Notes under the pieces: generated by a model
Told to the model about the DNA's origin: nothing
Database searches by the model: none
What the model saw: only the letters and a program-made list of their open reading frames with translations
Origin: Schmidtea nova
Lineage: Eukaryota
Direction: 5' to 3'
Length of the DNA: 64,000 nucleotides
NCBI GenBank assembly: GCA_044892505.1
Contig: CM097883.1
Location: forward strand, 448,632,001-448,696,000
Shown: positions 4,750 through 29,585 of the stretch, piece by piece
Layout: every line of letters begins with the position of its first letter
Position numbering within the stretch: position 1 is the stretch's first letter
Position numbers and translations under genes: made by a program

Positions 4750-5217
4750 TGCTGGGTTCATGGAGGGGTTAGATGAAAAATGCTCTAACAATGACTAGGG
4801 ATCCCTCATCCATGATCATGCATAAAATTGCAATTTTACACTCAAGCGCCCTTGATTATTTCCCTATATAATCAAGTTGGTGATGCGCAGGGTGGTTAAA
4901 CAATGATGGGCAGGTGAGCACTATTGCTAGTACTACTCCCCATTTATGTTTACGGGTCCATTGCTGCCGTTAGAAGGACTTACGCTTTAATCATCCCCTT
5001 AGGTATTCCGTGTTAATCTTTCAGAAAATTCATTTTTATCATTACTCAGTCTGCGAGAAGTATTTCAACGAATGCTCGCTTAATTATTTAATTATCTCTA
5101 TTCGATATTTTGTAAACTGAATTTATACTTTTGTTCTATCTTTATTTAATCATTGGTAAAGTTAATTAAATCAATTTAAATGAACAATGAGATTCTTAAG
5201 CCAATGCAACAATTTAT

Positions 5218-5814
5218 TTAATTTTTAATGAGTTCGGTAAAAACTCCCGCCGGAGGAAAAATCTCCGTCAATAATGCTTCCTCAGTCATCTGATGTAGAC
5301 CATCGACTTGGATTTGTAATTGCTGGGCAAATAATTTTCTCTGTCTCCGCCGTTTCTGCCCAATGCGCTTGCGTTTCTGGTGCGCAGTCGCCGATGAAGT
5401 GGTTGAATTGGCTGGAGGAGCTGTCTCATTCCGACTTTCAATTAAATCGGGGACATCCGTTCCAATGGAGTTTACTGTCTTCTTTTCTGCCGTCCAAGCT
5501 TGGTACGTAATCGGACGGATTTGCTCTCTGAGTTCCTTCTCGATGTATGAGGCAGTTACGGAATGGAGGCATTTTCGGAGTTCTATCTTTGTAGCCTCCC
5601 ATTCCATTTGGTAATCGGCTGCAGTCTGTTGGGCGCGCTCGGTTTTACTGATTTGCTCCTTCATTCGGGCCGGAGCAAACCAGCTTTTGCGCAAATATGC
5701 AATCTGTGCCTCTGCTTTGATCAATTGTGCCTTGAGGAGACCCAATTCCTTGTCCTGGGCTCTCCGAATCCGCCACATCTTTTCCAATTCTTTCTGCATC
5801 AAATCTGGGTTCAT
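5218..5814 (-). CDS. LTR-encoded ORF L2 (198 aa), coiled coil plus Arg/Lys-rich motif; 3' LTR copy
   Basis: ATG preceded by ttatAG-a; translation identical to 31622-32218; QKRKRIGQKRRRQRK motif. Confidence 0.75.
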   Translation of the reverse strand: MNPDLMQKELEKMWRIRRAQDKELGLLKAQLIKAEAQIAYLRKSWFAPARMKEQISKTERAQQTAADYQMEWEATKIELRKCLHSVTASYIEKELREQIRPITYQAWTAEKKTVNSIGTDVPDLIESRNETAPPANSTTSSATAHQKRKRIGQKRRRQRKLFAQQLQIQVDGLHQMTEEALLTEIFPPAGVFTELIKN

Positions 5815-5998
5815 TCTATAATTTATTTAGGATATTTACTCTATGATTAAATGATGTGAAAAATGAAACTGATCATAGGGTTATTTGGTTACGAATATGA
5901 ATTATTAAAAACACAATACCAAAACTCAAAACAACATAACAAAAACACTGCTGAATATTAATATTTAATCACAATTTGAAAGATTTGACAATCAGTTC

Positions 5999-6439
5999 TT
6001 ATCTCCGAAACAGGCTATGTAATTCGCTGTTAATCGGTTTCTGACGGAGACGAGCCCAAGAGAATGAGGGTTGTCCTTTCTGGCACTCCTTGCCGAACGG
6101 TTTTCGTGGCAGGAATTCGTGTAGGCCTAGTTGGCATAGTTCCCGACGAGGGATATGCCCCCAATAAATTACACGGCTTGTCTGTCCATCGGTGTCCTTG
6201 ATCAGTACGACAAGTCGGCCAAATTTGTTTGAGTACGGCCTTTGAGAAATCGGCCAGTTCCATATCGAGAACGGGCATTTTCGGCCAAACCCCTGTCGCC
6301 ACTTATACATTTGGCAGTTGAGGGTTCGCAATATCGATGCTGGTAGATCCTTGAGCTGCGAGATATTTTCATTCCGCAGATTCCCTTGCTCCATATTCCG
6401 TAGTTGCGTTAATTGATTTGTAAGTTCAGCTGTCGACAT
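5999..6439 (-). CDS. LTR-encoded ORF L1 (146-aa version), unknown function; 3' LTR copy
   Basis: ATG directly after aatatAG; same as 32403-32882 but lacking 13 codons. Confidence 0.65.
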   Translation of the reverse strand: MSTAELTNQLTQLRNMEQGNLRNENISQLKDLPASILRTLNCQMYKWRQGFGRKCPFSIWNWPISQRPYSNKFGRLVVLIKDTDGQTSRVIYWGHIPRRELCQLGLHEFLPRKPFGKECQKGQPSFSWARLRQKPINSELHSLFRR

Positions 6440-8026
6440 CTATATTACATTTATTGGATATAAATATGAGTTAAGGGGGAAATTCGTTGATAATTTAATT
6501 ATGTTGCATATAATCACAACAGTTAAAAAATGAGATTAATTTTATTTCTCTCCGCCGTGATCTACCACGGTCGGAATAAAGAGTTCATAATTAGTCCTGT
6601 GCTATATACAGCATTCAGGAATTATCAAATTTAATCAAGATTTCCGCGCTATATACAGCGATCGGAGAATAACTTGGGAAACCGCATCATATACGACGAT
6701 CGGCCTATTTTTAGTAACTAATTTAATTTGGATTTTCCGACGCATTCCATCGCGATCGGAATTTATCGATATTAAAATTTTGTAGGCGAAATGCTGATTC
6801 CGAATGAAATCGGACTTTGGACTACGTTGGATTTTCTCATTCCAACGAAATTATTCAAATTTATTTTAGTTGTTGCTCACTGTTTTCCATGCGGGAGGTT
6901 CCCTTTCGATTCAATTTACCAAAAATTTAAAGACTGGGCATGCCCTACCATGGGGTGTCCCTCCTTATCCATCCGCCCTCCGCAATCTACATATTTGGCC
7001 CTCGACCTTCGTCCGTTGTGCAACCCAAAATTAAATAATTTGCAAATGGTCTGTATTAGACTAAAAATTCAATCAAATTTTCTAGATAAAACTTCACATC
7101 TAAATTAAATAATAAAAAGGTTGAACCGCCATGTGAGACCGTGAGGCCCCACAACGACGACTCGGACTCCCTCGCCGCGTGAGCAGCATAGGAAGTATAG
7201 CTATATGCATGAAAAATAATCAATGAAAAAATAAAATAACGTTTACATATAAGATTTTAATTAAATAAAAAATCATGGGTACATAAAAAATAACAATCAA
7301 AATTACGTTCCGTACCTGAATTCTGTTTTTTCAAAAAATTCTCGCTTCGTTAAATGAAATGTTACTTAAATCAAAGTTTAGTCTTGATTGTAAGTGAAAT
7401 GTAAAACGTCTTAAGTTGAGTTATGATTTTTGGATCGGTATTTATACTGATCCGTCTGGTTGGATTGACCAATCAGGATCAGGCCGTCCATCAAAGTATT
7501 TTTATTATTTTATTCTAATCTAAACATTATTTTGTTTCCTTTTCCGGTTTCTCGCTGGGTGGTCCTGATTTTCCAAGTAATTAATTAATTATTTGTACTA
7601 TTATTTTATTTAATTCTATTTTTTCTTATTTCAGGCCCCCTTTTGCGGTTGTTTACCGGTTTATTTTCAAAATTTCCTTTTACTGAAAATTTATCAATTA
7701 TTATTTGTCGTTTTATTGTTATTTTTAATTTGTTTTTCATGCTATTTTTATTTTTATTATTTCTTTATTGTTTCATGCTTTTGTTCGTTTTATTGTGTTT
7801 TTAGGTGATTTGGCGGGCCCAACATCACCCGGGGACCCCTAAAATTGCGTCCCGCAATTAATTATACATAAATACTTATATTCATCATCCATAAAAAGTT
7901 TTATAAAGTTATACATGCAAAGAAAATCACATAAGGTGATCGAATTTATACATATCATAAAGTTTGTCATTAAATAGTCAAAATGTAATGATTTGTCACA
8001 ATAGTTCGGTAAGTTTATCATAATGT

Positions 8027-8596
8027 TTATACAATTTGTTCGATCGTCTGGCTCGCTTGGGGTTGAGTTCGGGTCCTCTCGTTGATCATTTGTAGCTCGT
8101 AGTGGGTTTGAATGTGGTTGAGATGGCTCCTTATTCGTCTTTGAGCTCGGTTATCTCGTCTGGAGGTTTGGTTGTAGATTTTCTGCTTTTGTTTTAGGAT
8201 TTTTATTCTATACGAGGCAAGCAGGATTGTGATTGCGATGATAGTTGTGCTGACTGCTAGGATTATGATGATTGCTATGATCCATTTCTCTTGATATTCT
8301 ATTTCAGCTTGGGATAGGCTTTTTATGGGTTCTCTACCTTCTTTCAGGATTTTTCGGGTTTCTTCTAGTTTCAGTTGTTGGTTATCGAAGATTTGTTGGA
8401 TTTGATGGTCTTGATTGTGAGGGTATTTCTGTCGGAATTCGTTGATTTCTTTAATTACTTCTTCGATTAGGCTGTCTACTTTCTGATAGGTTTTGTCGGG
8501 TAGAACTCGTAATTGGGTTTCGGTTAGTTGTAGATCTTCTCTCTGTAGGGTAATGGTTGTTAACCATAGGAGTGTTGTTATTGCGAGCTTTCTCAT
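8027..8596 (-). CDS. Accessory small type I membrane protein (~189 aa from ATG at 8596)
   Basis: MRKLAITTLLWLTTITLQ signal-like N-terminus, helical ectodomain, TM WIIAIIIILAVSTTIIAITILLA, basic tail. The ORF-track start at 8629 is a GTG. Confidence 0.75.
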   Translation of the reverse strand: MRKLAITTLLWLTTITLQREDLQLTETQLRVLPDKTYQKVDSLIEEVIKEINEFRQKYPHNQDHQIQQIFDNQQLKLEETRKILKEGREPIKSLSQAEIEYQEKWIIAIIIILAVSTTIIAITILLASYRIKILKQKQKIYNQTSRRDNRAQRRIRSHLNHIQTHYELQMINERTRTQPQASQTIEQIV

Positions 8597-8671
8597 CTCT
8601 TTTATACATTGGTCAATACGGCTTGACACTTTTTATTTTACATAATTTATTTACACTTGGTTTTCGCACAT

Positions 8672-9733
8672 TTATACAAGGGTTTCGTTGGGTTCGTGAA
8701 AACCTTCGTCTTGAGGTTCCACCTGATTTATGGGGAGTGGCATCCATATTACCGTGCTCCTCCACATTTCGACTTCTTCTCGGTATGTGTGGGATATCTG
8801 GATCTCTTCATCTAATAAGTATTCCAGATAGTTCGCCTGTTCTGTTAGGGTTTCAATTTGTTTTTCTAGTTCTGCCAATTTTTTCTCTCTCTCTTCCTTC
8901 TCCATCATTTCGGTTACTGCTGCTGTGATTCTTGTTTCTTTTATTGGTATTGGTTTTTCTGCCAACTTCTTTCTCAGTTCTTCGTTTTCTTTTGTCAAAT
9001 TTGTTATGTTCTCTTCATAACTCTGCCTCGTTTCTTCCAGTCTTTCTTTAGTTCTTTTTAATTCTATTTTCTTCTGGGTAATCACTCCTTGATATCCATT
9101 TATGTCTCTTTTCATGTTTTCCTCCTTGTGATTCCACATTCCGGTCAGCATACCTTTTAACTGTTCTTGATTGGCTAAATCTTCTCCCATTCTTTGTACT
9201 TGATAAGTTAATTCTTTTATTTTCTTGGCTTGTTCTCTGATAAATTGTTGTCTTTTCTTACTCCATACTTTATTTGACGCTTCTTGACTGATCTTTTGCC
9301 CTAATTCCTCTTTTAATTCATCGATCTCTTTAAACAGTTTCCAATCATCGCTGTACGCTGTTCGTTCTATTATCTCCCTTGCTTCCTTGTAAGAGTCTTT
9401 TGCCTCTTTCTTCCAATATCTTGCTTGTTCTGTGATTGACTGAATCTTATGGTCTGTTTTTATTTGTTGTCTATCCCTATCCTCTCGTCGCTCTTTCATC
9501 ATCTCTTTGTAGTATTCGTTTTGTTGTCTTAGCAGTTTGTAGACTTCTTCTATTTTTTCTCGACTTCTTTGATTCGTTTTCTCGGCTTCTCTTAGTGCTT
9601 GGGTTTGTCTTTCCAATTCCTCCTGTTTTCGGTAATAGGCATGAATCCATATCCCAATCCGCTCCATGTGATTTCTGATCATTTCGTCTTGATGTACTGT
9701 TACTTCTTGTAAGGTTACTTCTATATTTCCCAT
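8672..9733 (-). CDS. Accessory long coiled-coil protein (353 aa)
   Basis: E/K/Q/R-rich helical composition throughout, same strand and codon bias as the polyprotein, ATG after tatAG-aa. Confidence 0.8.
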   Translation of the reverse strand: MGNIEVTLQEVTVHQDEMIRNHMERIGIWIHAYYRKQEELERQTQALREAEKTNQRSREKIEEVYKLLRQQNEYYKEMMKERREDRDRQQIKTDHKIQSITEQARYWKKEAKDSYKEAREIIERTAYSDDWKLFKEIDELKEELGQKISQEASNKVWSKKRQQFIREQAKKIKELTYQVQRMGEDLANQEQLKGMLTGMWNHKEENMKRDINGYQGVITQKKIELKRTKERLEETRQSYEENITNLTKENEELRKKLAEKPIPIKETRITAAVTEMMEKEEREKKLAELEKQIETLTEQANYLEYLLDEEIQISHTYREEVEMWRSTVIWMPLPINQVEPQDEGFHEPNETLV

Positions 9734-9845
9734 TTCTATAATTACAGATAAAAAGAATATTTAATCAGTTTTTATTTTTATTGTTTTTGATTATTTGTTA
9801 TTTCATATTGTTCTATACAGTTTATTTACATGGTTACTTCCTTCA

Positions 9846-11222
9846 TTACGCCAACCATCCTTTTCTGTCTGTTTTCTCATGCCTCTCCATCTCTATGTAT
9901 AGCGTGTCTGCATATAGTTGCTCCCATAGGTTTTCTTTCCTTATAAACATTGGTTCTCCTGCTGCTAGTCCGCATTCTGTCGTTGGTTTTTCGCTCGTAC
10001 TCGAATGTTTGTCTGTTTCAAAGAACTTTTCTACTGGTTTTCCCATACTTTTGATTCTTATAATGACTCCTATTTTCAAGGGCCATTCTATTAGGTCATC
10101 GTATTCTCCTTTACATAGTGAGAAGAATATTGACACGTGTGTTCCTTGTCCTCTTCCGTCTCCATTTGGGTATACTTTCAATCTTATTTTAACCCCGTTT
10201 TTCCATAAATAAAATGGTGGGCTTATTACTGCTGTTTTCGTCATATTTCTGGCTTCTGCTAGTTTGTCTCTGAAATCTGTTACTTTCCATAGGTAAGGTG
10301 CGATTGGTAAGTCCCTTCTTTCGTCAATTTCTCGTATTAACTGATTATATTGTATTTTCATTCCTTTTCCTAATTCTTCTATGGCTATTATTTTCTTTTC
10401 CATTCTTTCGCGAGTTAGTTCAAACTGCTCTCTTGTTTCTAGTAGTAAACTCATCATTATCTTATGTGATTCTACTTCTTTTTCTAATTTCTGGATTGTC
10501 TGTTCCGTTTCTTTTGTCGTTTCGTTTGTCATTTCCACATGCGTTAGTGCTGCTTCTTCTAGGTGTTGTTTCATTGATTGCCGCGTCCGCTTTTCTTTGC
10601 ATCCCTGCTTGTTATATGGACATTCTCTTGGTCTTTCGGTACATACTTTCCAATGTTCATGTAACTTTACTTCTTCTGTTATTTCGCAATTGTTTGGACA
10701 TTTACTTACATATTGTCTGCATACTTTCTCTTCTGTTATATTCAAGTGTTCCTCTTCGATTTTTCTCCTTGTTTCTCGAGTTTCACAATACTCGCATGCG
10801 ATTTCTTCTTCTTTACATTCTTCCTTGTGTTGTTCTCTCTTCTTTAGAGTTATTGTCTGTTGGCATTTCTCGCATTCGGCTCTCTTTTCCTCGCATTTTT
10901 CCATATGGTTCTCTAGATTGCTTATTTGTCCTTGCCATGTACAAGGTGTATTTACGCACTCCGTTATGGTGCTCATAATTTCTCTCTGGGTTGCTTTGTC
11001 CGTTCTGGTTTCGTTCAACACTATTCTTCCTTCTTTACATTCTGGGCATGTTGTTATTCCTGTTACATCTAGTTCTTGTATACATTTTGTACATATTCTA
11101 CATCCACATATCGTTTGTCTGGGTTCTCGTAATAAATTGTTACATTTTCCGCATGTGAGCCTCTTGCTCCATTTTCTGTTTTCTAATCTCAAAATTTCGA
11201 TTATTCGTTCTTCTCTGTCCAT
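9846..11222 (-). CDS. Element-borne complete TRAF-family protein (458 aa): RING, TRAF zinc fingers, coiled coil, MATH domain
   Basis: CGKCNNLLREPRQTICGCRICTKC...CPEC RING; CPYNKQGC zinc finger; MATH motifs YLWKVTDF, SPPFYL, LKVYPNGDGRGQGTHVSIFF, YDDLIEWP. Confidence 0.93.
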   Translation of the reverse strand: MDREERIIEILRLENRKWSKRLTCGKCNNLLREPRQTICGCRICTKCIQELDVTGITTCPECKEGRIVLNETRTDKATQREIMSTITECVNTPCTWQGQISNLENHMEKCEEKRAECEKCQQTITLKKREQHKEECKEEEIACEYCETRETRRKIEEEHLNITEEKVCRQYVSKCPNNCEITEEVKLHEHWKVCTERPRECPYNKQGCKEKRTRQSMKQHLEEAALTHVEMTNETTKETEQTIQKLEKEVESHKIMMSLLLETREQFELTRERMEKKIIAIEELGKGMKIQYNQLIREIDERRDLPIAPYLWKVTDFRDKLAEARNMTKTAVISPPFYLWKNGVKIRLKVYPNGDGRGQGTHVSIFFSLCKGEYDDLIEWPLKIGVIIRIKSMGKPVEKFFETDKHSSTSEKPTTECGLAAGEPMFIRKENLWEQLYADTLYIEMERHEKTDRKGWLA

Positions 11223-11314
11223 TTTCTACAATAATATATACATTCGACTTGTCATTTATTTTTGGTTTTTCTTGTTTTTATTTTTACATATTTACAGTTT
11301 TCCGCTTTATTTAT

Positions 11315-11671
11315 CTATGGCTCATTCGTTGAATCTGGTTCCGCTTCGTTGTTTAATCTATTTATTACCCAACTCATCCATCCTTCTTCGGATCCTTCTC
11401 TTTCTCCTCGTGTTAAATGGTTTATTTCTATTGCTTGTCTTTGATTGATATTGCTTATATTTTGATTTTCTCTGGTGAGCTCGGTTATCACTCTTTGTTG
11501 TTCTTCTATTCTGTGTAATTGTTCGAAACAGTTGTTATAACTTTCTGATAATAACATTTGTCTTTCCGCTAATTGGTTCTGTAATGAGTTGACTGTTCGT
11601 ACTAATAAATCACATTGTGCCTTCCATCTCATAGCCATAGTTATTTCAGTTGTTTCGTCCTGTTCGGTCAT
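11315..11671 (-). CDS. Accessory short coiled-coil protein (118 aa)
   Basis: Heptad-like L/Q/E pattern; ATG after atttAG-aa; first ORF after the polyprotein stop. Confidence 0.7.
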   Translation of the reverse strand: MTEQDETTEITMAMRWKAQCDLLVRTVNSLQNQLAERQMLLSESYNNCFEQLHRIEEQQRVITELTRENQNISNINQRQAIEINHLTRGEREGSEEGWMSWVINRLNNEAEPDSTNEP

Positions 11672-11795
11672 TTCTAAATTATATACATCATTTACTTTGT
11701 TTTCCTAGCTTTTTACAATTTTTATAATATCGATACCCATACTATTACGGTAATGCTTTGTTATTTACACTATTATTTACAGTCATAATCCGCCC

Positions 11796-14700
11796 CTATA
11801 CCATCATTATCGTCTTTTCCTCGTATCGTTCTTCATCTTCTATTTGTTTCCAGAATTCTTTACCTTTCGTTCTTCTTTGGAATTCTTGCTGTATCTCTTC
11901 TGGTATTTCTATTCTTTGCTTCATAATTTTAATATCTGGCCATTGTATGGCTGTCGCTTTGTTTCTCTTTCTGTATCTCCAATATATTATCATGCTTGTC
12001 GTCATTATCCCATATGCTATTAATATTCCTATACTGATTAATCCTATTACTGTTTTTCCACGGTTTGTTTCTCCTTTATTCTGGTTCGCTTTTATCTCAT
12101 TTTGGGTTTGAGCCTCTGGCTTCCTCTCTTTCTGTATTTGACTCTTAACTTTGTTCATTACTTCTTGTGTAGACCAATGGCGATTTAGTAGTTGTTTGAC
12201 GTTATTTTCTTTTGTTCGGTTTTCCACGTTTCCTGGTTCGATCTGCTGTTGTAGTTTCTCTGAGATCTGATATAATCCGCATTCTGGGTTTTCTGAACCT
12301 TTACTGGTGAAGGTACATATCGCGTATGTCCTATTTACTTCCATTTTCTTTAATTCGACTTTTTCTTTATTCTTTATTTCTTTACAGTGGGTTAGGTTGT
12401 CTTCTTCCCCTTCTGGGTTATGCTTTGTCCAACATATTCCTTTAACTGTCTGATCGAGTCCTGTTAATGTCAGAGTTCTTTCTGTCTTTGTTAATTCTTC
12501 TTCATCGAATTTCAGTATTTCTCCTTTTTGGAATGTCTTGCAATGCTCTATTCCCTCTTGGATTCCTCTCTCCCAGATACATATACTTCCTTCTTCATTC
12601 ATTTGTATTTCTTGTATTTCGATTTCCTTGTTTGTTTGTGATTCGTCGCTTGTCTGTACTTGGTATTCCTTCCTTGGTTCGTTGTATGTTCCCCAGCATA
12701 GTTTGTTGCTACTTGTTTTCCTTATTGTTATGGCCATTTGTTCTATTATTATTCCTTTATCGATGCGTTTGGACATTGCTAGTATTAATGCTATGCATAC
12801 GCACTCCTGTTGGGGTGATATTCTTTCTCTCGTTTTATTGGTGCTTCTCTCCCCTTCTCTTGGTTTGTTCGTTGTATTTTCCTTCTGAGTTGCTGGTCGA
12901 TCTATTGTGGTTTTGATCTCTTTCTTTGTTGGTTTTACTTTGTACCACTCAAGTCTGGGCGTTTCATTTTTTTGACATACGACTGTCTTAGGTAGCCCTG
13001 ACTTCTTTTCCTTTCCTATTATACATATCCGATGCATGATTCCTCTGTCCATCCCTTCTATTCGTACTATATCCTGGTCGGATTTTCTGATTATGCATTT
13101 TAGTGGGTTATCTTTCCCAATTGGTTCATCCTCTCTATTCCAGCATATTTTCTCGACCTCCTGGACATTTACTATTTTTATCCCTGTTTGTAGGTTTGTT
13201 GCTTCTTCCCTATTGATTAATGTCAATATTATTGTTAGACCCAACCATCTTGAACTCTGCGATAGGCTTCTGGTTCGCCTTTCATATTTTTTCTCTTCGC
13301 CTTTAGTCTCTTTCGTTTCCTTGTCTTTGTTGTTTATTCCTAGTTTTCCGCTTTTTGCTTCTTTCTCTTTTGGTTCTTCTCGTGCTTTTTCTTCTAGCAT
13401 TTCTACTCCATGGCTTGTATTATCTATATTTAGCCATTGGGTTGTTGATTTTCTTGGGCTTATCTTGCGTATCCATATAGCTGATAACGCGATTATTACT
13501 GGTATGGTTGCTGTTAATATTCCTAAGCCGATTAGTTCTTTAATTTCTTTATTCTCGTCTGTTTGTATAGGTTCGCTTTGGTTGAACATTATTCCGTATT
13601 GTCCCTTTAGTTTTCTCATTAATTGTTCTCGTTCCTCTTGCTTTCTTTTGACTTCTTTGATAACTTCTTCAGGTGTCCATTTTGCTTGAGGGTCGGTTAT
13701 TGTTTTTTCTGCGTCCATTTGTTCATTCGTTTGGCTTAGTTCCCTGAATTCGAGTTTCCTTGTTATTCCTTTCGATGTTGCGTTCGCTGGTGTATAGTAG
13801 GTTTCGCATCTTTCTTGTTGGTTTCCTAGTGCGTCCGTCTTTTCTATTGTACATACTTCATACTCGCTATTAAATTGTAGTTTTTCGATCTTGATTTCTT
13901 TATTTGTTTTTCTGCACTCTCTTGATTGTCTTCTTATATGTTTCTGAACTATTATCCAACATATCTCTAATGTTTTATTCTCTATTTTCCATAATGTCAG
14001 AGTTGCTGATGTCTTTTTCTCGGATTTTGTCGTAACTTCTTGGCTTATCGGTTGTTTATTGTTTTTAAAGGTAGTGGTGTACTTCGGTTTCCCTTTGTTT
14101 CGTTGTCTTCTTTTATTTTTTCGTGTTAACGTTTTAGTTCTGGTTCCGGATGAAGTGGTGTATATTCCGCATTCTAGGTCGTTTATCGTTATCTGATCAT
14201 TTTTCTTTACCAGACATATTTCGTAAGTTTGTTTACTTTCTAAACCTTTTATTTGTATCGTCGTTGCTCCTGTGCTTGTTCGACATTGTGGTGTCTTTCT
14301 TTCATTCGTTTCTTTTTCGTACTTCCTCCAGCATACTCCTTTCACATTTGGTTCTATTTCTTTTATTTCTAATGTTATGTTCAGTTTCTGCTTGATTTGT
14401 TTATTTCTCTTCCTCGTTCTCCTTCGGAACTTTATTACCTCTCCAGGTTGGAATGTTTTACATTTTGTGGTACCTTTCTTGTTCCTCTCTTTCTCAAGTA
14501 GGCATAGTTTGTACGTCTTGTCTGCTCTTACTTCGGATACTTTAATTACTTTGTTTGTTGTGGGTTTTCGACTTTTCCTTATTTCATTTACGCCGATTTC
14601 TTCGTCATTCCTCGCCCAACATTTTATGTTAGTGTTCTGTGTATCTTCCACTTCTGTTATTGTCATAGTTTCAATTTCTATTCCTTCCTCTAATCGTTTT

Positions 14701-17700
14701 ATTATTATTAGTATGAGTGCTAAGCATAATACTTCCATTTGGTAAGACACTCTTTCGGTTTCGTTTGTGGCAATTCTTGTTTCGGGCCTCTCTATTGTAA
14801 TTCGTAGGGTTGGTGTTGTTTGCTTATCTATTGCCTGGGGTTTTTTATTTTCTGTTCTCTGTGTCTCTGTTCTTCCACATTTTCCGATGATGTAATCTCC
14901 TTTGGGTGACTGTTGTATTGTCATGGCTGCTTTAGGTGTTTGGTATTTTGCACATGCGATTGTGTTGTGTGATCTTGGATGTTTTTGTTTCCTAACGGTG
15001 CATATTTTGTACCAGGTGTCTAGATCTAGGTCGTTGATCTCTATGATCTCTTGCTCGTGTTTTGAGATTCTGCAATCCATCGGGCTATTTTGTTCCGTGA
15101 TTTTGTCCTTTTTTGACCAACATACTCGTTCGATTCCTTTTGCGTTTTTTATTTGTATTATTGCCCTTTCTTCACATGTCATTCCTTGACTTGGGTTAAT
15201 TAACGTTAAAATCACTGTTAATAATAGTAATTCTGGTTTGAAGAATGGTTTTATGGTTGATTTATAACTTGTTCTTTGGGTGTCATTTTTATCTCCTTGG
15301 TCGTTTTTTCCTTGTTCTCCATCTCCATCTCTTTGTTTTTCGTCTTCACTTTTCTTTTCTTCTTTGTCTCGTTTCTTGTCTTTTCTCTCGTTTTCTTCTT
15401 TATCGGGTGGTTCGTGATCGTTCGAATTTTCTGAGTTGTTACCGTCGTCACTATCTGTATTGTCATCTCCCCCTGGCTCGTCGAAAATGTCGTCCTCGAC
15501 ATTGATTTCTTCTATCAATTTTGCATATGCCAATGTCGTTAGATTACTTGCCTCAAATTCTTGTGTTTCTACTTGCTCCGGTATTGCTTTGTTAGTGGAT
15601 TTATGTTCCAAGATTTCCTTTTTGGCCTTGATCCAATTGTTGATGTATGTCTTCATCAATTCTTTCCATTTGCCTGTGTATTTTTCTTCTTTCGGGCTGT
15701 TTGTGATTCTTAGATCCTTTCTTTCCATAAACATCTTCAATATCTCTGGCCATTTATACGTTATTAAGGCACTTCTTATACACCAGTTTTGGTTATGTTC
15801 TGTAAACTTATTAATCCTGAATGCTGGTTCGTTAGTATTAGGATTTATCCACGTAAGTATTGATTCTGTTAGTTCGACGTTGTTCATCATTGCTAGTACA
15901 CTGGGTTTCTTGACCGTATCAGTTAGGTGATCTATTTCTTCCTGATTTGGGACGGTTTTTAGGAAGTTGACCATTTCCCAATTATGTGTTAGTAACGCTA
16001 CATCCAAAATTGAATTATCTTTATCTGTTTTACCTGTAAGTCCTGCACCTGCTTTGTATAGTTCCTCTAATACCTTTGTTTTCGTTTTGGCCCTTGCTGC
16101 AAATACCATAAGTGTATCTCCTTTCTCGTCTATCATATTCATATTGCTTCCGCAATTTAGCATTACTCTTGCAATCTCCATTACTTTTCTATCTTTGCCA
16201 TTTCGTAGAGCTCTATGTGGGGGCATTATTCCGTCCTTTGGTAGTAAAAATGTTACTGGCATCTCCTTTTTTATTATTACTATGTCGTTTCCGTTGTAAG
16301 TTCCTTTTGCGTATGCGTGTACTTTTTCAACTAATGCACCGAGTATTTCCAGTGCATGTTTACTATTCTCGAATTCTGGTAACAATTCTTTTGCTTTTTC
16401 TTGTATCGCATCTAGTCTAGCTTGGTATGGTGCTTCTGCTTTAAAGAGTGGTGTGAGTTTCTTGTTACTTTCTCTTTCTTTTTTCTCCAAAACCTGTTTG
16501 CATTTTTCGGGATGGTTTAAGATTTTCACTAATTCCTCGTACTCACTTACTATTGTCTGGTATTTCTCGTTAAAATTGTTTATGTCTTTGTATGTTATTA
16601 GTTTGTCAAATGGTTTCGCACACCATTTCCTAATCTTGTTGAATAAGGCTTCCTTCTCTTTATCGAATTTGTATTCTTCTTCATTCTTTGTGATGTTTAT
16701 GTTTCCTCTGTCTAATAAGGTTAGTAATGTCTTCTGATCACAAGTAAATTTCAGAAGATATCTTAACAACGCGTTTTGTCCTTCGCTGTATACTTCGTTT
16801 ATGTCTAAGACCCATGTATCATCTTCTGGTCGTTTCCATTTGACTAACTTACGGATCGTGTTGCATTTACCAATTTTGATTGCCTCTTTGATAATGTCTC
16901 CTTTAACTAGTTCGTCTATCTCCCAAGTGGAGTTAACTATTATGTATTTCAGCATTGGTTGGTGAGAACTCCATATTACGTGATTTAGCACTGTTTTGTC
17001 CTCTCTATCTCGTTCTGTCCAACTGAAATGGGCTTTTATCAATAAATCTACCATTTCTTTATCTGCTTGGTGGATTGCGGCTGTCATTAATGGAGTTTCT
17101 TGTTCACGATTCCCTACGTCCAAGTTTTGGTTTGTTTCTTTTGCGATTTTTAGGAATTCTTTTGCTCTTTCAATGTTTTTACACTCTATCGCATTATGTA
17201 AGGCTGGTTGTCCTCCTACATCTTTCAATAAGAGTATTTCAGGGATTTTTTCCAATAATTCAGAAATAATTGGTTCGGTTGGTAATCCTTGCGCGTAACG
17301 GCTAATCATATGTCTAATATCCCTTGATATGCCTGCTTCGTCTCTAACATGCCATCTTCCCATTATTTCTCTCGCCTTCAATATGATCTCTTTGTTTCTG
17401 ATTTCTTTTTGCCTTATTTCTGCTTTGTCGTCTTCAGTTACATTAGCTCTGAGCATATTTATCCTGGCTGTTTGTGATCTAGTTATTATTCGATTTTCTG
17501 GTGTTGTAGTTATCGTTTTAGGCACCTTTTTACATCTGCAGGTGTTTACATATATGGGTCGTATTAAGGGTCGATTTATTAGCTTAACTTTGACATTATT
17601 GTCCTTTTTGTATATAATTTCATAAGGTCCTCTTCCAGGTCTTTGGAGTTTCTTAACTGTTCCTGGTATTATTTCGGGAGTTTCTATTATCACCCAATCT

Positions 17701-20700
17701 CCTGGTTTTAGATCGTTCGCTTTAACATTTTTCTTCTGATCGTGTAAGTCCTTATAACTTTCCTGATAAAATTTAATGTTGAGTTCTGCCGTTTTCCATA
17801 TTTCCTGCATTCTTTCTTTGAATTTGGTTATGTAGTCGTCGTCTTCCATATATTGCGATAGTGGTGGCTGATACTCTAAATCTATGGGCATGTTGCATTC
17901 TCTTCCATACATAAGTTGAAATGGGCTTAGTTTTGTTGCTGCATGTATCGACATTCGGTATGCCATTAAACATAATTTTATGTATTCGTCCCAATCAGTT
18001 TGATGTCTGCTGACGTAATTTGATAACATTCTAATCAATGTACCATTGAATCGCTCCGTTTGTCCATTCGTTTGCGGGTGATATGGTGAAGTTCTCAATT
18101 TTGCTATTCTGAAATAGTTTGTTACCTCGTTCAATAGCTCGCTCATAAAATTAGTTCCTTGGTCTGTGAGAATTTGTTTTGGGGTTCCGTATCTGCAACA
18201 TATTTCTTCCACTAAAATTTTTGCTACAGTTTTTGCTTTTTGGTCTTGCATGGCAAATGCTTCCGGGAATTTTGTCAGATAATCTGTTATCACTAATATA
18301 TAAATATTTCCGTTTAGACTTTCCGGTAATGGTCCTATTACGTCCATTGCTATAGTTGTCATTGGCTCTGCTGGTATCGGCATTGGTTGTAGCGGGTTCT
18401 TCCATTTCTTCCCACTATCCTTTCTGGTTGCGCAAGTTAGACAATTTTTAATCCATTCTTTTATATCTTCTTCCATTGTTCGCCAATAATATTTTTGTCT
18501 CATACGATTTATTGTCTTCTTCTCGGACATATGGCCTCCTAATTTCCCATCATGGTACTGGATCATTATCTCTTTCCTTCTGTTTTCCGGTAAACACATC
18601 AATCTCTTTTCTCCGTCTTGTATTAACAACCATCCTTTATTTATTATGTAGCGATGTTGATATTTTCCTATATGTTCCTTTAATTCCTTATTCTCTTTGA
18701 ATACCTCCATGTTTCGAGATGTTAGGAACTCTATGATTTGTCCTAATTCTTTGTCTTCTTGTTGATCTTTCTTAAGCTCGCTAAAATCTAAATCTTCTGC
18801 TATTAATACACAAATTCGTTGTACATCAGGATCGGTTAATTCCGGAAATGTCAGTCTTGACATACAGTCTGCATTCGCATTTGCTCGTCCTGATTTAAAT
18901 TTTATGTCCGGTGAGTACTCCTGTAATTGCATTGCCCATCGCATTAGTCTACTAGATGTTTCCTTGTGCTGTCCTAACCATACAAGCGGTTGGTGATCTG
19001 TTGTTATGCAGATGATGTGTCCCCATAATAAATATTTAAAATGTTTTATTGCTAGTATAATTGCTAATGCTTCTCGCTCGGTTACCGAGTAGTTTTTCTC
19101 ATGCTTTTTGAATGTCCGGCTATAATATCCGATTACCCGTTCTTTTCCTTCATCGTCGTATTGTCCTAATACTGCTCCTGCTGCATATCCGCTTGCATCT
19201 GTTGCAAGTAGGAATGGCTTCTTAAAGTCTGGGTGTACCAATATGGGTGCGGTTATCAATTTATCTCTCAACGTTTCAAAGGCTGTTTGTTGTTCATCTC
19301 CCCATATGAATGATACATCTTTCTTTACCAGTTCCTGTATAGGCTTTGCGATTCCGGCGTAATCTTTTATAAACTTCCTATAATATCCACATAATCCGAG
19401 AAATTCTTGTATTTGGGTTATTGTTTTTGGTACTGGACATTCTTTTACCTTGTCGATGTTTCTAGGATCCGGTTCTTTTCCTTTTGCTGACACTATATGT
19501 CCTAAAAATGTAACCTTTTCTTTTGCCCAGTCACACTTGGATGGCTTGAGTTTTAACTTCCATTGTCTAAGTCTAACGAATACATCTCGAATATCCTGTA
19601 TGTGTTGTTCGAATGTACTAGAGTAAATCAATAAGTCGTCGATGTAGACCATGCACTGCTTTATTCCATGGGTGATGAAATTCATGCATCTCTGAAATGA
19701 TGCTGGTGCGTTCGTTAATCCAAATGGCATCTTTCGAAATTGATATAGGTCTCTACCGATGGTAAAGGCAGTTTTCTCTTTATCTTCTTCCTTCATTTTT
19801 ATTTGCCAATATCCGCTTTTCAGATCTAACGACGTAAAATATGCTGCTCCTTGTAATGTTAGTAGCATCTCGTTGATGTCTGGTAATGGGTAAGTATCTC
19901 GTTTTGTCACTGTATTCAATCTTCGGTAATCTATACAGAATCTCTGTGTTCCGTCTTTCTTCTTCACCATTACCACTGGAAATTGCCAGGGTGAACAACT
20001 TGGTTCGATTACTTCTGCATCCAACATTTTTTTCACTTCTGCTTCTGCTACTGCTTTCTGTGCTTCCGCTAATTTGTACGGCCTTAATGCAATTGGTGTT
20101 TCATCTGTTAATGGTATTGTATGTAGTGTGACATCACATGTTCCTAGATCCAAATCGGATGCTGCAAATATATCCTTATACTCTATCAGGAGTTTTTCTA
20201 ACTGCTTCCTTTGATCCTCATTTAATAATTCACTATCTATATTCCAGGTTGGCTCTTTATCTTTCTCTGCTCCTTCTATTGGTAGTTCGATATCCATCAT
20301 TGGGGTTAGTTTGCCTAATCTTTCGTTTTCGTAGATTATTTTGTCCTCTTCATCGAAGTTTACTATGTTTATTGGGATTTCTCCATCGTCATTTATGTTG
20401 ACTAGTCCTCTTGCCATTGGCAACGCTTTTCTTTTCTCGAATCTTTTACTTGGTTCGAAAATCATATCCCCTTGGATTATTGGATCTATTTTTACATAAC
20501 ATATTTTTTCCTTTCTTGCGGGTATGATCATTTGCTTTGAACTCGTCACTTTAGCTTCTATTGCGCATATCTGCCCTGTGCGATCCCTCAGTCTCATTGT
20601 TCCGAGATCGATTACAATTTCTTTAAATAATGCTGGCATCAAATCTGTTCCGATGATGCAAGGTACGCTTAACGCTGGTATGACTGCTACATACGTATCG

Positions 20701-23700
20701 ATTTCTGTATTTAAGTGGCGTATTTTTACCCACCATCTTCCTGCTACTTCTACAACTTCTTTGCTACATGCAATTACATGGACGTTTGTCCTTTCTATAT
20801 CTCGTCTTTGCTCTTGTGGTATCCATTTGATGTCGATGGCGGAAATGTTTGCTCCAGTGTCGATCATTGCTTCGATTTCTCTTCCGTTAATTTCTATTGT
20901 CGTGGTTAGTACTGGACCTGTGTTTGATGACATTACTGCGATCGTGTGTGTATCTCCTTGTGGATCTACGCTTCTACATCTTCTCATTTTATAATCTTCT
21001 GGTATCATGGGATATACATTTGTCATTGGCATCATTTGCATCGTGCTATTTTTTCCTCCTTGTAGTGGTTCTTGATACATGGTTGGTGGAGGTGCGTAAC
21101 ATTTCCATGCGTCGGCTGGATTCTTTTCGATGTATTGTGGTGCTTGGTTCTTATACACTTGTCCTCCTTTATAGTCGTCATCGTCGTCATCGTCGTCACT
21201 CGAATCATGTTGGGTTTTATATCCTTTCATCCTCTCCCATAAACCTTTTCTTTCTCTCTTGAGCTGTTGTCTTGCTTGTTCGTCATTCATTATCTTTTTA
21301 AATTTTCGTCCCACTTCTTCATCTGTTCCCTTCATTTTTGCTAATATCTTTAGGAGTCTTTTTATTCGGTGGATATCTTTTGAGTGACCGTGTAACACCA
21401 TCGTTTTCGCAAGGAATGGTAAAAATCCTACTACCATTTTCCAATTCACTTTCTTTTCTCTCTTGTAGATATCGAAACATGCTAACATTTGTGTTATTAT
21501 CACTCTGACGATTTGGATTATTAATATGACCCCCAGTATTCCAGCCATCATTTGTCCGAATATCAAGAATCTTCCCCACATTGCTTTCATCATGTTTTCT
21601 GTGGCTTTTTTGAAATGTGCTGGTGACAACAACAGTTCATAATTCGGTCCTTCTCGATAATCCGTTCCTCCCGTTATCGTTACGATATTTGACAATAATG
21701 CTTCTCTTCTCGCTGGGAATAATATATTCTGCCTTGCTGCTTCTAAATCCTTTGGACTATATATTCCATTGTTTGAGACATCCACGTCGCTAAATTGCCT
21801 ATCCTTTGACAACTGCATTAGCTCGAATTCTCTTGGTGCTATCACTTCGGATCTTCCTGGGAACATAACCCATTTACCATCTGGTTTCTGATAAAGCGGT
21901 CCATACGCATTACTACAGTTGAATGGATTTGGTTCAAACCCTGGTGGATTGATGATTCTCGTCACCGGTTGAACGTATCGTACTTTTCCTTTGTAATCGA
22001 TTTCTAACTCATTTGTACAGGTTCCAGGTTTCAACTGTGTTGTTGCTGCTAGCGACGCGTGTGTCTTTTCGCAAATGTATACATACATTGCTTCTCCAAC
22101 CACTCTCCCGAAATGTCCTTCTCTCAGTGGTAATAATGGCATCGCGCTATCTGGATTCGTAATCGCTACGGCCAATTTTGTCTTTAGTATTTCTCGATTC
22201 AGTATACAATCGTTATTGATCAGATCGTAATACACTTTTTGTAATGAGGCTTGTCCTCTATGGAATAGGAAATCCATTTTATTATTCACATACAAGTGTA
22301 GTTTGATATCCATTGTGTCGATTTTGGGTTTCGCATTTGGCACTTCTTGTTTTGACACATATATTCCTGGGTAATTCGTTTCGTATACCGTTGTACTACA
22401 CTTAAGGGTTGCTTTCCCTTTTATGAATCTCATTCCCACATCTTGATTTGTGGTTATCAATACTGTTGGTGTGGCTCTCATCTCTATTCGTTTTTCTCTA
22501 TGATCTGGTTTCAGTTGTCTTTTATTCTCTAAAGCTTCCTTGAGATGCTTTGCTCTAGCTTTGTCGTCATCGTCTTCTTCCTGAAACGTTTTTCCTTGGA
22601 TTTCGTCGAACTTTGCTCCTTGTAGCAGTTGTAACTGACATTCGTTCATCTTTGGTTTGTACACTAATGTTGACATTCCCGTTTGACACATGCTCCTGTC
22701 GATTTTACACATGGATAACGTTTTCATTTCTCCCGTTGTTGGTTCGAAGAATGCTTCGTAGCTTTTTAGTTCGACTATATACGTATCCATTACTACTAGG
22801 TTGGTTGCGGGTACTCCGAATATCGGGTAGGTTTCTCCTTGACAATATCCTTCTCCTCCCGTAATCCGTCCTGCTACATAGTACGTTTGTTGCATCATCA
22901 TTCCTGGCTTTCCTCTTATCTTGATTTTATCTCTTGTTGTTACTTCTCCATGTTTAAACAGTGCTTCGCAGTCTTCTCCTTGTAACACGATTGGTTCTCT
23001 TTCCGTTCCTGGCATGACAATTGCTGAATAATGTCCTCTCCCGCAGTAGAATGCGAATCTCGTCTTCTGCACTTTACATTCATTCACCATTGTCTTTATG
23101 AGTTCTGCTTCTTGATACACGTGGTACCATTGTTCCTTTTTAATCTTTTGCAACTCTACTGGAGTTGCATCTTTGCATTGCTCCGTACCTCTCAATGAAT
23201 ACTTTTCTCCTAACTTCATTTGGTCGCAATCAAACACTTCGAATGCTGTTGCGCTATCGGTGCTAATCATCCATATCAACATCATCATTATTATAGAACT
23301 CAAATTCATTGATGACTTCGCGTGTCCTGTTCCTGCTTGTTCTTTTTCTAACTCTTCCAATATTTTTTCGAATTTCTTTTTCATATTCTTCGCTTGCGTT
23401 TTCTTCTGGTTAGTTTTTATAAATGTTTCCCATCCTCCTTTGTTAATGACGTATGGTTCTATTTCTCTTGCTATAATTTTTGCGGTATTTTTTATATGTC
23501 TCTCTAATGCAGTGGGTTTTGGTCGACCTCTACTCAATGTCAACAAATTGTATATCGTGTATGCAATGGCTATTACGTATTTGTTATCCGTTTCCGCTCC
23601 TTCTGTCAGTTTCTTTATTAACATAGTGGTTCCTTGCCAGTCTAAATGGTTTGACTTCGTCTTTTCTTTTATGAATTCCGGTAAGATGGGTGCGATTGCG

Positions 23701-26700
23701 CTGTGTAGTGACTTCGCCTTTTCGCTTATCTCGGTTATACGCCAGTATTTTCTTAATTCCGGATCAATTATTGCCAATATTTCCATTATTGTTTTCGATA
23801 TCCATTCCTCCCCTTGACATATTGGTGTTGTCTCTTTTTCTTTCATCTCCGCAATTTTATTTAGTTTCCTTAAACATAATTCCCATTGATCTTGTCTCTT
23901 TTCGTCTTTATTTCTTACAACTACAGTTGTTGGGTCTGTCTTAGGTCTACCTCTAGGTCGTTTATCCATTCCTGTACCTGTTTCCACAAACCTTGTTGCC
24001 CGTCCTGTTTCTTCCGTAACATCTCTTGGTTCGTTAGCTCTTTCCTCTAACCATCTTTCCATTTCTTGCGTTAATTGTACGTTTTCGACATTCGCTCCTC
24101 TCGTTTCGTCTTCTGTCAAATCGTTTACTTCTTCTATTATTATTTCTTCTTCGACTTCTGTTTCTCCGGTGTTGGTTACTTGTATTGTCGTAGGTAATTC
24201 TTGTATTCTTTCGAAAATGTTATCGTCTTTTTCCTTTGTTAATTCGGTTAATTCTTCTATCATATCGTCGCTATCCGTTAAAATTTCGTCCACGTCGTAT
24301 GGTTGTGGTGGAGTCCTTTCTCTATTCCCTCTGGGTGTTGTCTCAGATCGTTTCGAACTTGTCCCTGGTGTTAGTACTGATTTCATCGGACTCGGCGTAC
24401 TTATACTTCCGTGTGGTTTACGGTTTTCTTCTTTATGTTTCAATGGTTGACCTGCTATTGCTTCTACTGTCAAGGTATTCATGAGATCTAGTTGTGCTGG
24501 CGTTATTCCAATTTCCAAACTGTTATCTAATGATCGTCCTTGGTGTTGTAAATGGAATGGTGGTTCGTATCTCAATTTCTTTTTAATATCTCGAATTTTT
24601 TCTGCTATTCCTACCCACAACTCTTCCTTATCCTTGTTTGGGTATATTATTCTTAAATGTACTTTCTGTGGAATTTCCTGCGAGAATTCTTGGTTTCTCC
24701 ATTTCCTAATTACATGGTCTAGTTGTTCCGGGCACCACTCGTTAACTCTTTTATATTCCGCGATTGCTTTTGCTACTTTACGCAAGCATGTTATATCTTC
24801 CCCATTTACCACGAAAAAATCTGCGAGACCCTTTATTAATTTTCTCTTACCGTGCGCATTAGTTTTTAATATTTCGACGAATTCTTCCGTTTTTTGCTTT
24901 TCCCTTTCTAACCACATGGCTGCTGTTTCTGGTCCATCTAGGTCTATTGGCGTAGCTTTCCTTGTCACCATGCAAACCCTTCCTATCTCTGGTTCGCAGT
25001 CATCTTCAATTCCTCTTTTATATTCTTCTTCATATTCCCCTTCTTTTGGTTCCCAACATTTTCCTTTCTCGTTCCATTGTTTTTCTACGGGTGTTCGTAT
25101 TCGTCTGTTGAGATTGAGTTCTTCTAATACATTTTCCCACTCTGGCCAAATTCGCCAATTTCGATAAATTTCTACTATTTGTTGTAATTTACGCACAACT
25201 TCTTTCCGTCGTTCCCGTTCTCTTTTCTCATCTTTAGCAGTTTCTCTTGGTGTATCGTCCATTCTGCTAACGTGGATTGTTTGGTGATTATCCCATATAC
25301 CGATTTTATATAATCGTCTCTCATCGTGATCCCATAATACATGTTCGTTGTATTGTATGATTATGTCGTCTTCCCATTCGTCTTCTGGTTCTCTTTGCAC
25401 TAGTGTCTCGTTGATGACATTTATTAATTCTTTAATGGTGCAATCCGCTACCACTTCAATTTCTTTGGTGTCTTCATTAGGCAATTCTACTGAAATTTTT
25501 AGATCTGTTATTTTCCCTTGTCTGAACATTGTTTTTCCCATTTTTGCGATTAATTTGTCGTGTGAGATCTGTGACCATCTCGTGTGGCTTGTGTCACGTA
25601 TGCACTCAATACATCGTTTCAATTTCTCGTATTCGCTTCTCATTAACTCTTTTCTATGTTTTTTGACTTGTGGTATGATTTGTTCTATCAGGGAATTTAG
25701 ATTCTTTCGCAAAACTCGTTCTTTCTCGTATTCTAACCGTGGTTTTATTCTCCGTTCGAAGCACGCGTTTGCTTCCCTTGCAACTTCTTGTAGGTTCTCT
25801 TCTTCTTTTTCATCACATATTGATAACAGAGTTATTTCTCCTGGCCATATACCTGTTTCTACTAAGTGCGTTCTTTTCTTTACGAGTCTATTCTGCGAAT
25901 AGATGAATTTGTTTTTGTATGAGCTCCCTAGTCTATCCTCTACCCATCTGTAGATATCGTCTGTAAATGGAGTTTTGATCCAGATTCTTGGTGTAGATGT
26001 ATTTATTATTATTGAGATGGTGTAATTGAGGAGTGGTTCCTCTATTAATTTCCCTACGTATCGATTCAACATGTCTACCTCCCGGTCTTGTAACCATTCT
26101 TTGTAGTTCATTTGTAGTAATGCTTTCATGAATTTCCGATATTGTTTCTTGTCCATGAACTCTTCGTTATATATTACCTCTAGCGAGTTATCTAATAATT
26201 TCTGGATTTCATCTACTTTTATCTGTGTAGGTTCTGAGGTCTTTATTACTTCTCTCTCTTTATTTTCGTCTTCGGATTCGTTTAATATGTCTCCTGCTAG
26301 GCTACTGATGTCACTATCTTCTTCCTCATCGGAAAACTCTCTGGTGGTATTTCTTAGCATATTAATATGTGCTATTTGGTTCGTTTCTCCTTGTATATTC
26401 TCCGTTGGTTCTGGTTCGTTTTTGTCAATTTCTGGTGTTGGTTCACTCTTGTCCTCTATTACTTCGACTTTTTCCAATTTCTTTCCCAACTCGTCAATCT
26501 CTTTTAAACGTCTTCTTATCATTTTTCCTTCAAATATTCGCCGGATTCGGGTTTCGTGACGTATTGGTGGTGGAATTTCTTCTGGTTCTATTTCTTTAAT
26601 TCTCATCACATTTCTTTTTGTTTCTACTACTCCCATGTTTTCCCATATATCCGTTAATTTCAATTTTACTGATGGTGCACCCTCTATTTGTAAGAACGCT

Positions 26701-28745: not shown

Positions 28746-29361
28746 GGGGATTACTTTTGTATACTCAATTTTCCTGTTCTATCTCTTATCGTTTTTCTGA
28801 TTCTTCTTGCTTGATTGATTGATTTGATTGATTTGTATATCTAAAATACAAAGGTCCTCAACGATACATTATTGTTATCGTCGCGCTTTTATTCCCTTTC
28901 TTTCGGGATTACTTATTACTGGGTTTTCATTATTTCCCAATTCCCAGATTCCCCTTTATTTTTAGTCTATTTAAATTATCTATAGACTGGTCACAATTAT
29001 CTATTTATGTCGTAATAATTATCTATACTTTATCCAATCAATTACTTTTCCCACAGTCTCCCAATTTATTGGTCGCTCGAGCGCTCTAATTCCCTGAGTC
29101 TTTCTGACTCGTTTATCATTATTTTATCATTTCTATTCATTATTCCCTGCTAGCAATTGTTTTTACTTATTCTGCCGGTTGTTCCGGTCAGCCCAAAAAA
29201 TTTTTACTATTCTCCTTGCATGCTTTACTTAAGGTTGCATAATCAGCTTTTCTCGCATTCTCTTAACTACTAGTGCGCACTACTCTAAATCTCGTCGACG
29301 ATTACACTATGGGTCTATATTCCCTCTATTACTATTTATCCGGATATATCTATAGTTCACT

Positions 29362-29585
29362 ATGGCTCTTCCGGCCTCAATTTTATATCTCACATGGCTC
29401 TATTGGCCTCAATTTAATCTCTCAAATGGCTATCTTGGCCTTAATTTAATCTCTCAAATGGCTCTCTTGGCCTCAATTTAATCTCTCAAATGGCTCTCTT
29501 GGCCTTAATTTAATCTCTCAAATGGCTCTCTTGGCCTCAATTTAATCTCTCAAATGGCTCTCTTGGCCTCAATTTAATCTCTCAT
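29362..29585. repeat. Tandem array, 7 x 32 bp, in element leader
   Basis: Unit atggctctcttggcctcaatttaatctctcaa at 29362, 29394 ... 29554. Confidence 0.92.

Follow-up and report, generated by a model that had tools for sequence, protein, structure and literature searches.

A 64,000-nt stretch of the Schmidtea nova genome (assembly GCA_044892505.1, contig CM097883.1, positions 448,632,001 to 448,696,000), referred to here as the window, carries an intact long terminal repeat (LTR) retrotransposon of ~29.5 kb on the minus strand (4750-34267). It is a Burro-like giant Ty3/gypsy element, assigned as such by the layout described in PMC6431247. Its main open reading frame (ORF), ORF1, encodes, in order, Gag with a CCHC motif, a BCL2-like stretch, Env, protease (PR), reverse transcriptase (RT), RNase H (RH), integrase (IN), ankyrin repeats (Ank_2, E = 3.3e-13) and, past these, a C-terminal cassette of two units with predicted fibronectin type III (FN3) repeats, the subject of this report. 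The order of CCHC, Env (PF24664), protease, RT, RNase H, integrase, and ankyrin comes from Pfam. Env, which is mononegavirus-like, lies in frame between gag and pol, upstream of PR. The BCL2-like stretch before Env has no Pfam match but is 26% identical (E = 0.002) to the Bcl-2 matches found at the same place in sister elements. Downstream of ORF1 lies a TRAF/MATH ORF (9846-11222; MATH_2, E = 9.6e-21). The element belongs to an abundant family: a 139-aa probe gives 2,446 candidates in the genome (G000), the 150 that were scored all match at 87-100%, and 31 of these 150 (hand count) lie in open frames of at least 5,600 aa.

All six peptides quoted for this region in an earlier note are found in ORF1, downstream of the acidic linker, and its claim that the two units are duplicates holds. 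They share 103 identical residues out of 359 (29%; E = 2e-27), with a local alignment score of 453 against 68±11 (maximum, 113) over 300 shuffles. The repeats follow a CW..C..YxxC..C pattern, which occurs four times in unit 1 and three times in unit 2, where repeat d is missing; common to all seven are the C-W, a second Cys, an I.i.gL..Y.iC stretch, and the last Cys. The best pairings are a with a' (Z score, 22-24), b with b' (11-13), and c with c' (16-17). The order is thus H1-a-linker-H2-b-c-d-stalk-TM1 in unit 1 and H3-a'-linker-H4-b'-c'-stalk-TM2 in unit 2, where H and TM (transmembrane) denote the three hydrophobic segments per unit seen in hydropathy plots: H1 (aa 4517), H2 (aa 4683), and TM1 (aa 5083) and H3 (aa 5178), H4 (aa 5326), and TM2 (aa 5577). 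H2 and H4, with the related sequences EVLCLAL and ECVCIAL (the first pair of peptides quoted in the earlier note), are internal to each unit and too short for a membrane span. Counting the signal and anchor of Env, ORF1 has three TM segments of full length and five short segments that resemble signals. The earlier note had proposed one signal per unit and three signals and three TM anchors for the whole polyprotein; its three anchors stand, and signal-like segments are indeed present, but there are two per unit, four in the region, and five in all.

Features of the element and of the C-terminal units of ORF1 (positions in the window)
Feature	Position	Strand	Evidence or remarks
Burro-like Ty3/gypsy element	4750..34267	-	LTRs TG..CA; 4-bp target site duplication AAAG
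LTRs	4750-7824 (3,075 nt) and 31154-34267 (3,114 nt)		Differ by 1 mismatch and one 39-nt indel
ORF1	11796..28778	-	5,660 codons, stop to stop
Env (internal signal, PF24664 fusion ectodomain, TM anchor)	21495..23297	-	PF24664, E = 2.4e-71; hydropathy
Acidic linker, 5' of unit 1	15279..15512	-	Sequence
H1, signal-peptide-like	15183..15266	-	Basic n-region, core of 11-12 residues, S-Q-G cleavage site
FN3-like repeat a	14937..15182	-	Repeat alignment; dN/dS 0.14-0.19 against L095/L101
H2, second signal-like segment	14679..14738	-	Duplicate of H1 type, lacks (-3,-1) site, conserved Cys
FN3-like repeat b (three Cys)	14442..14678	-	Poorly modelled
FN3-like repeat c	14154..14384	-	Six strands in model, pLDDT 67-85; VIA Z 7.5 from strand B
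FN3-like repeat d, not in unit 2	13788..14012	-	Repeat alignment, Atlas
Stalk with WTPEEVIKEV	13533..13787	-	
TM1	13470..13532	-	Predicted type I orientation; N-flank -3, C-flank +4
Charged inter-unit loop, predicted cytosolic	13269..13469	-	
H3, signal-like	13200..13268	-	Basic n-region (+5); no close (-3,-1) site in window copy
FN3-like repeat a'	12963..13199	-	Z 22-24 against a
H4, paralogue of H2	12750..12806	-	
FN3-like repeat b' (three Cys)	12528..12749	-	Z 11-13 against b
FN3-like repeat c'	12264..12482	-	Z 16-17 against c; Fn3_ELFN E = 0.093, below cut-off
TM2, followed by RYRKR	11979..12053	-	Hydropathy, flank charges
C-terminal tail with acidic Tyr motif IEDEExYE	11799..11978	-	Common to single-unit relatives; dN/dS 0.15-0.19

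Both units are under purifying selection. In the 20 best of 41 DNA matches, a set biased towards intact copies, 18 are open, one has a stop, and one has a frameshift. Relative to the window, the 19 other copies carry 217 synonymous changes in 735 sites and 241 replacements in 2,730 sites, which gives a ratio of nonsynonymous to synonymous differences per site (pN/pS) of 0.30 (P = 1.7e-35), and 29 of the 31 Cys residues are invariant. Against the diverged relatives L095 and L101, the ratio of nonsynonymous to synonymous substitution rates (dN/dS) of unit 1 is 0.21, and no part exceeds 1.

The repeats very probably adopt an FN3-type fold, as judged from profile searches and structural models. 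Three different repeats give weak FN3-family rows in Pfam searches, and the fn3 family (PF00041) matches 7 of 32 rows of the repeat alignment at E values of 1 or less (best, 0.06). A profile built from that alignment, six sister rows included, ranks fibronectin first in the PDB (E = 0.0024); 10 of the 12 rows are FN3 proteins, with Tie2, NCAM, tenascin, and DCC among them. In 1.84 billion proteins the same profile yields 658 matches at E values of 0.001 or less, and 23 of 25 that were checked, out of 150 listed, carry Pfam fn3 at E values below 1e-8. The CW of the repeats aligns with the RG[IV]CW strand of the matched fn3 proteins, and the F-G cysteine pair is also present in a tick PTPRQ-like protein. 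With window repeats c-d as the sole query, the ten top clusters of the ESM Atlas are all fn3 (scores, 0.85-0.88). An AlphaFold model of H2-b-c, built on 36 rows, has a mean predicted local distance difference test (pLDDT) score of 57.8: repeat c forms six strands at 67-85, b is poor, and H2 is a helix at ~56. In VIA-align comparisons the model of repeat c superimposes on single-domain FN3 rows over ~70 residues (Z score, 7.5 to 6.2; root mean square deviation, 2.4-3.2), and we take 49 of the 50 rows, in part by their titles, to be of FN3 type. These alignments begin near residue 14 of the FN3 chains, i.e., at strand B, and strand A is unformed in the model. Folding of all 1,149 aa from a single sequence reached a pLDDT of only 34 and was not used, and a SAM_Ste50p match at the WSTQEV stalk (E = 0.029) falls below the cut-off and was rejected.

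Several observations weigh against this assignment. No single repeat passes the Pfam cut-off (best FN3-family E value, 0.051), and the profile signal is partly borrowed from the sister rows with their cleaner LxPxTxY motif; this E-F motif and the C-strand aromatic residue are present, in degenerate form in the window and clean in the sister loci, and the profile matches FN3 proteins there, but sister domains reach a Z score of at best 4.3 in pairwise comparison with the window repeats. The Atlas scores are leads only. No VIA row reaches a Z score of 8, below which a match may reflect a common arrangement, and repeat c alone is covered. Foldseek searches of the pdb and viral sets give nothing at E values of 0.001 or less (best, 0.004, to fibronectin), and word-index homologue searches at near and longer lengths give nothing at 0.01 or less, which is weak evidence. 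Each line is weak to moderate when taken alone, yet profiles, Atlas, and the repeat c model all point to FN3; the earlier proposal of FN3-type repeats is thus borne out as a predicted fold. The repeats probably lack strand A, and C-C' and F-G disulfides would be expected in them.

The use of the signals was judged by sequence anatomy alone, with a position-free insertion scale. The best 19-residue insertion sums are -0.1 for TM1, -0.5 for TM2, and +0.1 for the TM segment of Env, and those among H1-H4 are +4.7, +6.3, +7.9, and +8.1. TM1 and TM2 have uncharged runs of 22 and 25 residues, respectively, and basic C-flanks (+4 each), and H1 and H3 have basic N-flanks (+3 and +5). H1 shows the n/h/c anatomy of a signal peptide with an S-Q-G (-3,-1) site; H2 lacks such a site nearby. 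Measured to the next CW, the distance is 34-37 residues for every one of the nine H segments compared (34-36 for H1 and H3; 35-37 for H2 and H4), and in the relative L097, H1 and H2 are alike, which makes H2 and H4 duplicated signals. H2 lies 156 residues from H1, and H4 lies 138 from H3. The C' cysteine is missing only in b and b', the only repeats that follow a segment with a fixed Cys, and the Cys of H2 or H4 may be bonded to the odd Cys of b or b'.

Membrane crossing by all six segments of the region would place the two paralogues in opposite orientations and violate the charge rule at TM1 and H3; if H2 and H4 pass into the lumen, no rule is violated. Six membrane crossings of the whole polyprotein, with predicted cleavages, are accordingly the best topology and, we judge from these features, a likely one. 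Two points tell against it: the window copy of H3, despite its n and h regions, offers no (-3,-1) site close by, and in an experimental system described in PMC2174215, a second signal placed >60 residues past the first acted as a stop-transfer sequence, the second signal there being a full signal-anchor. Of the 7 matches to the protease-type motif in ORF1, none lies past aa 3772, there is no match to the strict furin pattern, and no splice acceptors are found 5' of H1-H4. Release from a region with neither protease-type motif nor splice acceptor would be left to signal peptidase, so that processing by the host enzyme, as proposed earlier, stands as a prediction. The multi-pass topology of the same proposal is supported, with type I anchors and six crossings as the best reading; the likeness to flaviviruses is an analogy only. 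Four runs of one study, of unrecorded kind, cover all 30 bins, with no splice-type joint in the region among the joints listed; this coverage carries no evidence on cassette expression, either way. Burro RNA levels are reported to increase upon piwi knock-down (PMC8532177).

Families whose RT is 47-50% identical, with ORFs of ~3,000-3,400 aa, also extend past the integrase. In 10 of 13 sister loci picked by their Bcl-2 matches, the ORF ends with integrase, a signal, one FN3-like domain (LxP[ND]TxY), a stalk, a TM segment, and a basic tail; in two more the sequence breaks off after the signal, and one ends earlier. Two of the loci picked by Env end with integrase, a signal, a 340-aa ectodomain whose fold was not confirmed, and a TM segment. 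The second ORF of the 3,400-aa families (L052:6086-7534 and L069:1652-3058) looks by eye like a DEDDh exonuclease and has no Pfam match.

Closer relatives carry a single unit. In L095 and L101 (RT of L101, 98% identical) it is 57-84% identical to unit 1, part by part, with a tail 65-68% identical to that of unit 2; L097 and L104 (RT, 95%) have one four-repeat unit that is 33% identical to the window from H1 to c. Each of these single-unit families numbers at least 40 copies. The cassette is the fastest-changing part of the element, with identities of 70% and 33% where those of RT are 98% and 95%. The ectodomain of unit 2 is only 28-32% identical to all single-unit relatives, which makes it an old paralogue and not a fresh copy. 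Unit 2 is a cassette that was inserted or lost, and a gain through recombination in the stretch from TM1 to the tail makes a shorter story than loss elsewhere. Neither a donor of unit 2 nor a host source gene was found in the homologue searches, beyond which no further search was made, and a degenerate pattern aimed at diverged relatives gave 3 matches, all from the window's own family. The IEDEExYE motif of the tail is kept in three subfamilies, and tail C termini are hydrophobic, e.g., ETFV and STLV; the acidic Tyr tail and these ends could presumably be read as kinase or PDZ motifs.

Five stretches picked by BIR matches (L084-L088) contain protease, ankyrin-side sequence, the acidic linker, a signal, and repeat a, followed by a stop. 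None of the five has a TM segment or a match to Env, RT, or integrase in the 10 kb fetched. This TM-less form has a pN/pS of 0.46, against 0.12 for its neighbour, and one Cys is lost in 4 of 5 copies. The element of these stretches is abundant and combines protease, TRAF, and a BIR ORF of ~399 aa (150 BIR matches scored). An optional 484-aa ORF with EGF-like Cys residues and a TM segment is present in one of the five loci (L087:3563-5014, -/+ as fetched, sense 4987-6438).

Env and the cassette do not travel together. L097 and the window are 97-100% identical across Env and 54-74% identical on its flanks. Among further copies with the L097 cassette, Env is 97.4-98.6% identical to that of the window in 9 of 10, one lacking Env at the expected place; among window-type copies it is 98.6-99.8% identical in 9 of 10. 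Because Env is 97-99% identical beside cassettes that are 33% identical, one Env was amplified with two very different cassettes. In the L094/L095 element the unit is 71% and Env 79% identical to the window. This swap of Env alone, between two abundant families, is seen at L097:6453-9998 and in L105-L114, with a synonymous divergence (dS) of 0.35 against saturated RT.

Taken together, these data make it on balance probable that the units are type I FN3 membrane proteins that serve as adhesion or address proteins acting apart from Env; for an adhesion or targeting role as such, the chances seem about even. In this model, H1 would bring the chain into the endoplasmic reticulum (ER) after integrase and ankyrin have been made, repeats a-d would fold in the lumen, and TM1 would stop transfer; H3 would then re-enter, a'-c' would fold, and TM2 would leave the Tyr-containing acidic tail in the cytosol. 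The duplicated signals H2 and H4, with no more than 11 uncharged residues, would probably be translocated into the lumen. Unit 1 would be released by signal peptidase, and unit 2 may remain tethered by an anchor that is not cleaved. The expressing cell, as well as budding particles or vesicles, would display the proteins, which would bind a host surface or matrix protein, with cytosolic tails serving in sorting or Gag contact. This model is at odds with the lack of visible positive selection in the cassette, with the absence of sequon enrichment (5 against 4.7 expected and 5 against 3.4), and with the TM-less form, which is easier to reconcile with a soluble ligand or decoy than with a tether. 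A bolder version, in which FN3 membrane proteins hold Gag particles or vesicles by their tails and direct them to chosen tissues independently of Env, as an exchangeable cell-address system that also releases a soluble repeat through its tandem signals, is tentative and would be unlikely to hold as a whole.

Other explanations have to be weighed against such adhesion proteins. The one we find least improbable, albeit still rather doubtful, is a host-facing decoy or signalling mimic, kept on or shed from the cell, that soaks up or imitates a receptor of the phosphatase, cytokine, or adhesion type alongside the BCL2, ankyrin, TRAF, and BIR cargo and has no part in particle entry. It would account for the TM-less form in 5 of 5 stretches of a family lacking Env and RT, and it agrees with the F-G cysteine pair shared with animal proteins such as the tick PTPRQ-like one, with the conserved acidic Tyr tail and hydrophobic C termini, and with the adjoining TRAF ORF; however, the TM-less form is the less constrained one and is losing a Cys, and placement in one ORF with Gag and Env ties the units one to one to particle proteins. 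A matched receptor-binding or triggering partner of Env, as suggested earlier, is a distinctly improbable alternative. HN for F and gH/gL for gB are known attachment or trigger partners of fusogens, the units share an ORF with a class III-type fusogen, and nearly all Env-bearing sister loci examined have a cassette. Nevertheless, the swap covers Env alone, and one-unit and two-unit forms have both been amplified; the independent assortment of Env and cassette argues against a matched partner and weakens that suggestion. Neutral read-through of captured, decaying host sequence is barely credible: the fast change of the cassette and the dispensability of unit 2 would fit it, but it is contradicted by the selection results, including the invariant Cys residues, and by the same layout in families with RT ~50% identical.

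Independently of these roles, H2 and H4 might be working topogenic signals, giving two topological forms or two products per unit, namely, repeat a as a small product, either secreted or anchored, and b-c-d as an anchored one. This is unlikely, and it would fit either an adhesion or a decoy role. They lie about as far from the CW as H1 and H3 do, H1 and H2 of L097 are alike, three subfamilies conserve H2 (dN/dS 0.18-0.23, with 1 replacement in 19 copies), a form consisting of repeat a and its signal is known from one family, and second signals able to stop transfer have been described (PMC2174215). On the other hand, the cores have 11 residues with 19-residue sums of +5.4 to +8.1, H2 lacks a basic n-region as well as a (-3,-1) site, and there is no splice acceptor 5' of H2 or H4 and no Met 5' of H4. 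Full stop-transfer would also leave Cys-paired repeats in the cytosol, with the paralogues inverted and the charge rule broken at TM1 and H3.

The remainder of the window holds several further features. Accessory ORFs at 8027-11671 (-) encode proteins of 118 aa, 458 aa (TRAF), 353 aa (coiled coil), and 200 aa (with a hydrophobic stretch); in three of the downstream accessory ORFs, TAG directly precedes the ATG, resembling a splice acceptor. Each LTR contains a 198-aa ORF (5218-5814 and 31622-32218, -) with no Pfam match. The leader between the 5' LTR and ORF1 has two tandem arrays with units of 32 and 29 nt (29330-29944), and a primer-binding-site-like stretch, which we take to resemble a tRNA-Pro site, lies 3-4 nt past the 5' LTR (31133-31150, -). 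A second retroelement with RT and RNase H is found at 41812-43401 (-).

The kind of element, the in-frame Env, and membrane glycoproteins within a single ORF are already in print; what this analysis adds is the doubled cassette, the tandem arrangement of signals, the form without a TM segment, and the exchange of Env. Burro1-4/GYPSM1, as described in the parts of PMC6431247 consulted, share a length of ~30 kb, long LTRs, a TRAF/MATH accessory ORF, and one ORF of ~5,000 aa with Gag, BCL2-like, Env in frame between gag and pol, PR-RT-RH-IN, and ankyrin; that account treats Burro elements as possible proviruses, leaving movement between cells open, and in those parts it has no FN3, signal, or TM module after integrase, whereas the window ORF1, of 5,660 aa, has two. 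The Burro literature searched does not mention an FN3 membrane protein past the integrase; Grohme 2018 and its supplements lie outside that set and may bear on this point. Platyhelminth errantiviruses with an HSV/gB-type Env (PMC13524379) have the same Gag-Env-Pol order, and the Env of Smed_errantivirus_1 closely resembles, by eye, those of sister loci L051/L055; that work, in the portion seen, treats a single surface protein and mentions neither fibronectin nor FN3 in its text, nor fibronectin in its supplements. Atlas virus, a nematode belpaovirus, is reported in the sections of PMC9094657 consulted to combine one Gag-Pol-Env ORF with two terminal tandem TM glycoproteins cut by cellular proteases. 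Those are a phlebovirus-like GN/GC entry pair, whereas the pair in the window is of FN3 type and Env lies upstream of Pol. With this virus and the Burro Env as precedents for membrane glycoproteins in a single retroelement ORF, the flavivirus likeness needs to be no more than analogy. The planarian nidovirus PSCNV likewise has a giant single ORF with ankyrin, duplicated fibronectin-named modules, and predicted C-terminal signal-peptidase processing, but it is an RNA virus and its FN2 modules have an unrelated fold (PMC6211748, in part).

A second conserved, swappable surface protein past the integrase would offer an ectodomain with which to probe for a host ligand and a marker for particles, and the polyprotein is predicted to cross the ER membrane six times, its enzymes looped between two surface modules. 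A working analogy is Drosophila Sas, which, according to the parts of 10.1101/2022.09.06.506798 available to us, has three FN3 repeats, one TM segment, and a short Tyr-motif tail that binds the Gag-derived dArc1, and links vesicle capsids to target cells. Sas is a host gene, its tail motif differs from that of the Burro tail, which again speaks against an address role, and the likeness is one of description. If the address system exists as outlined, it would represent a retrotransposon-encoded counterpart of the host Sas-Arc route.

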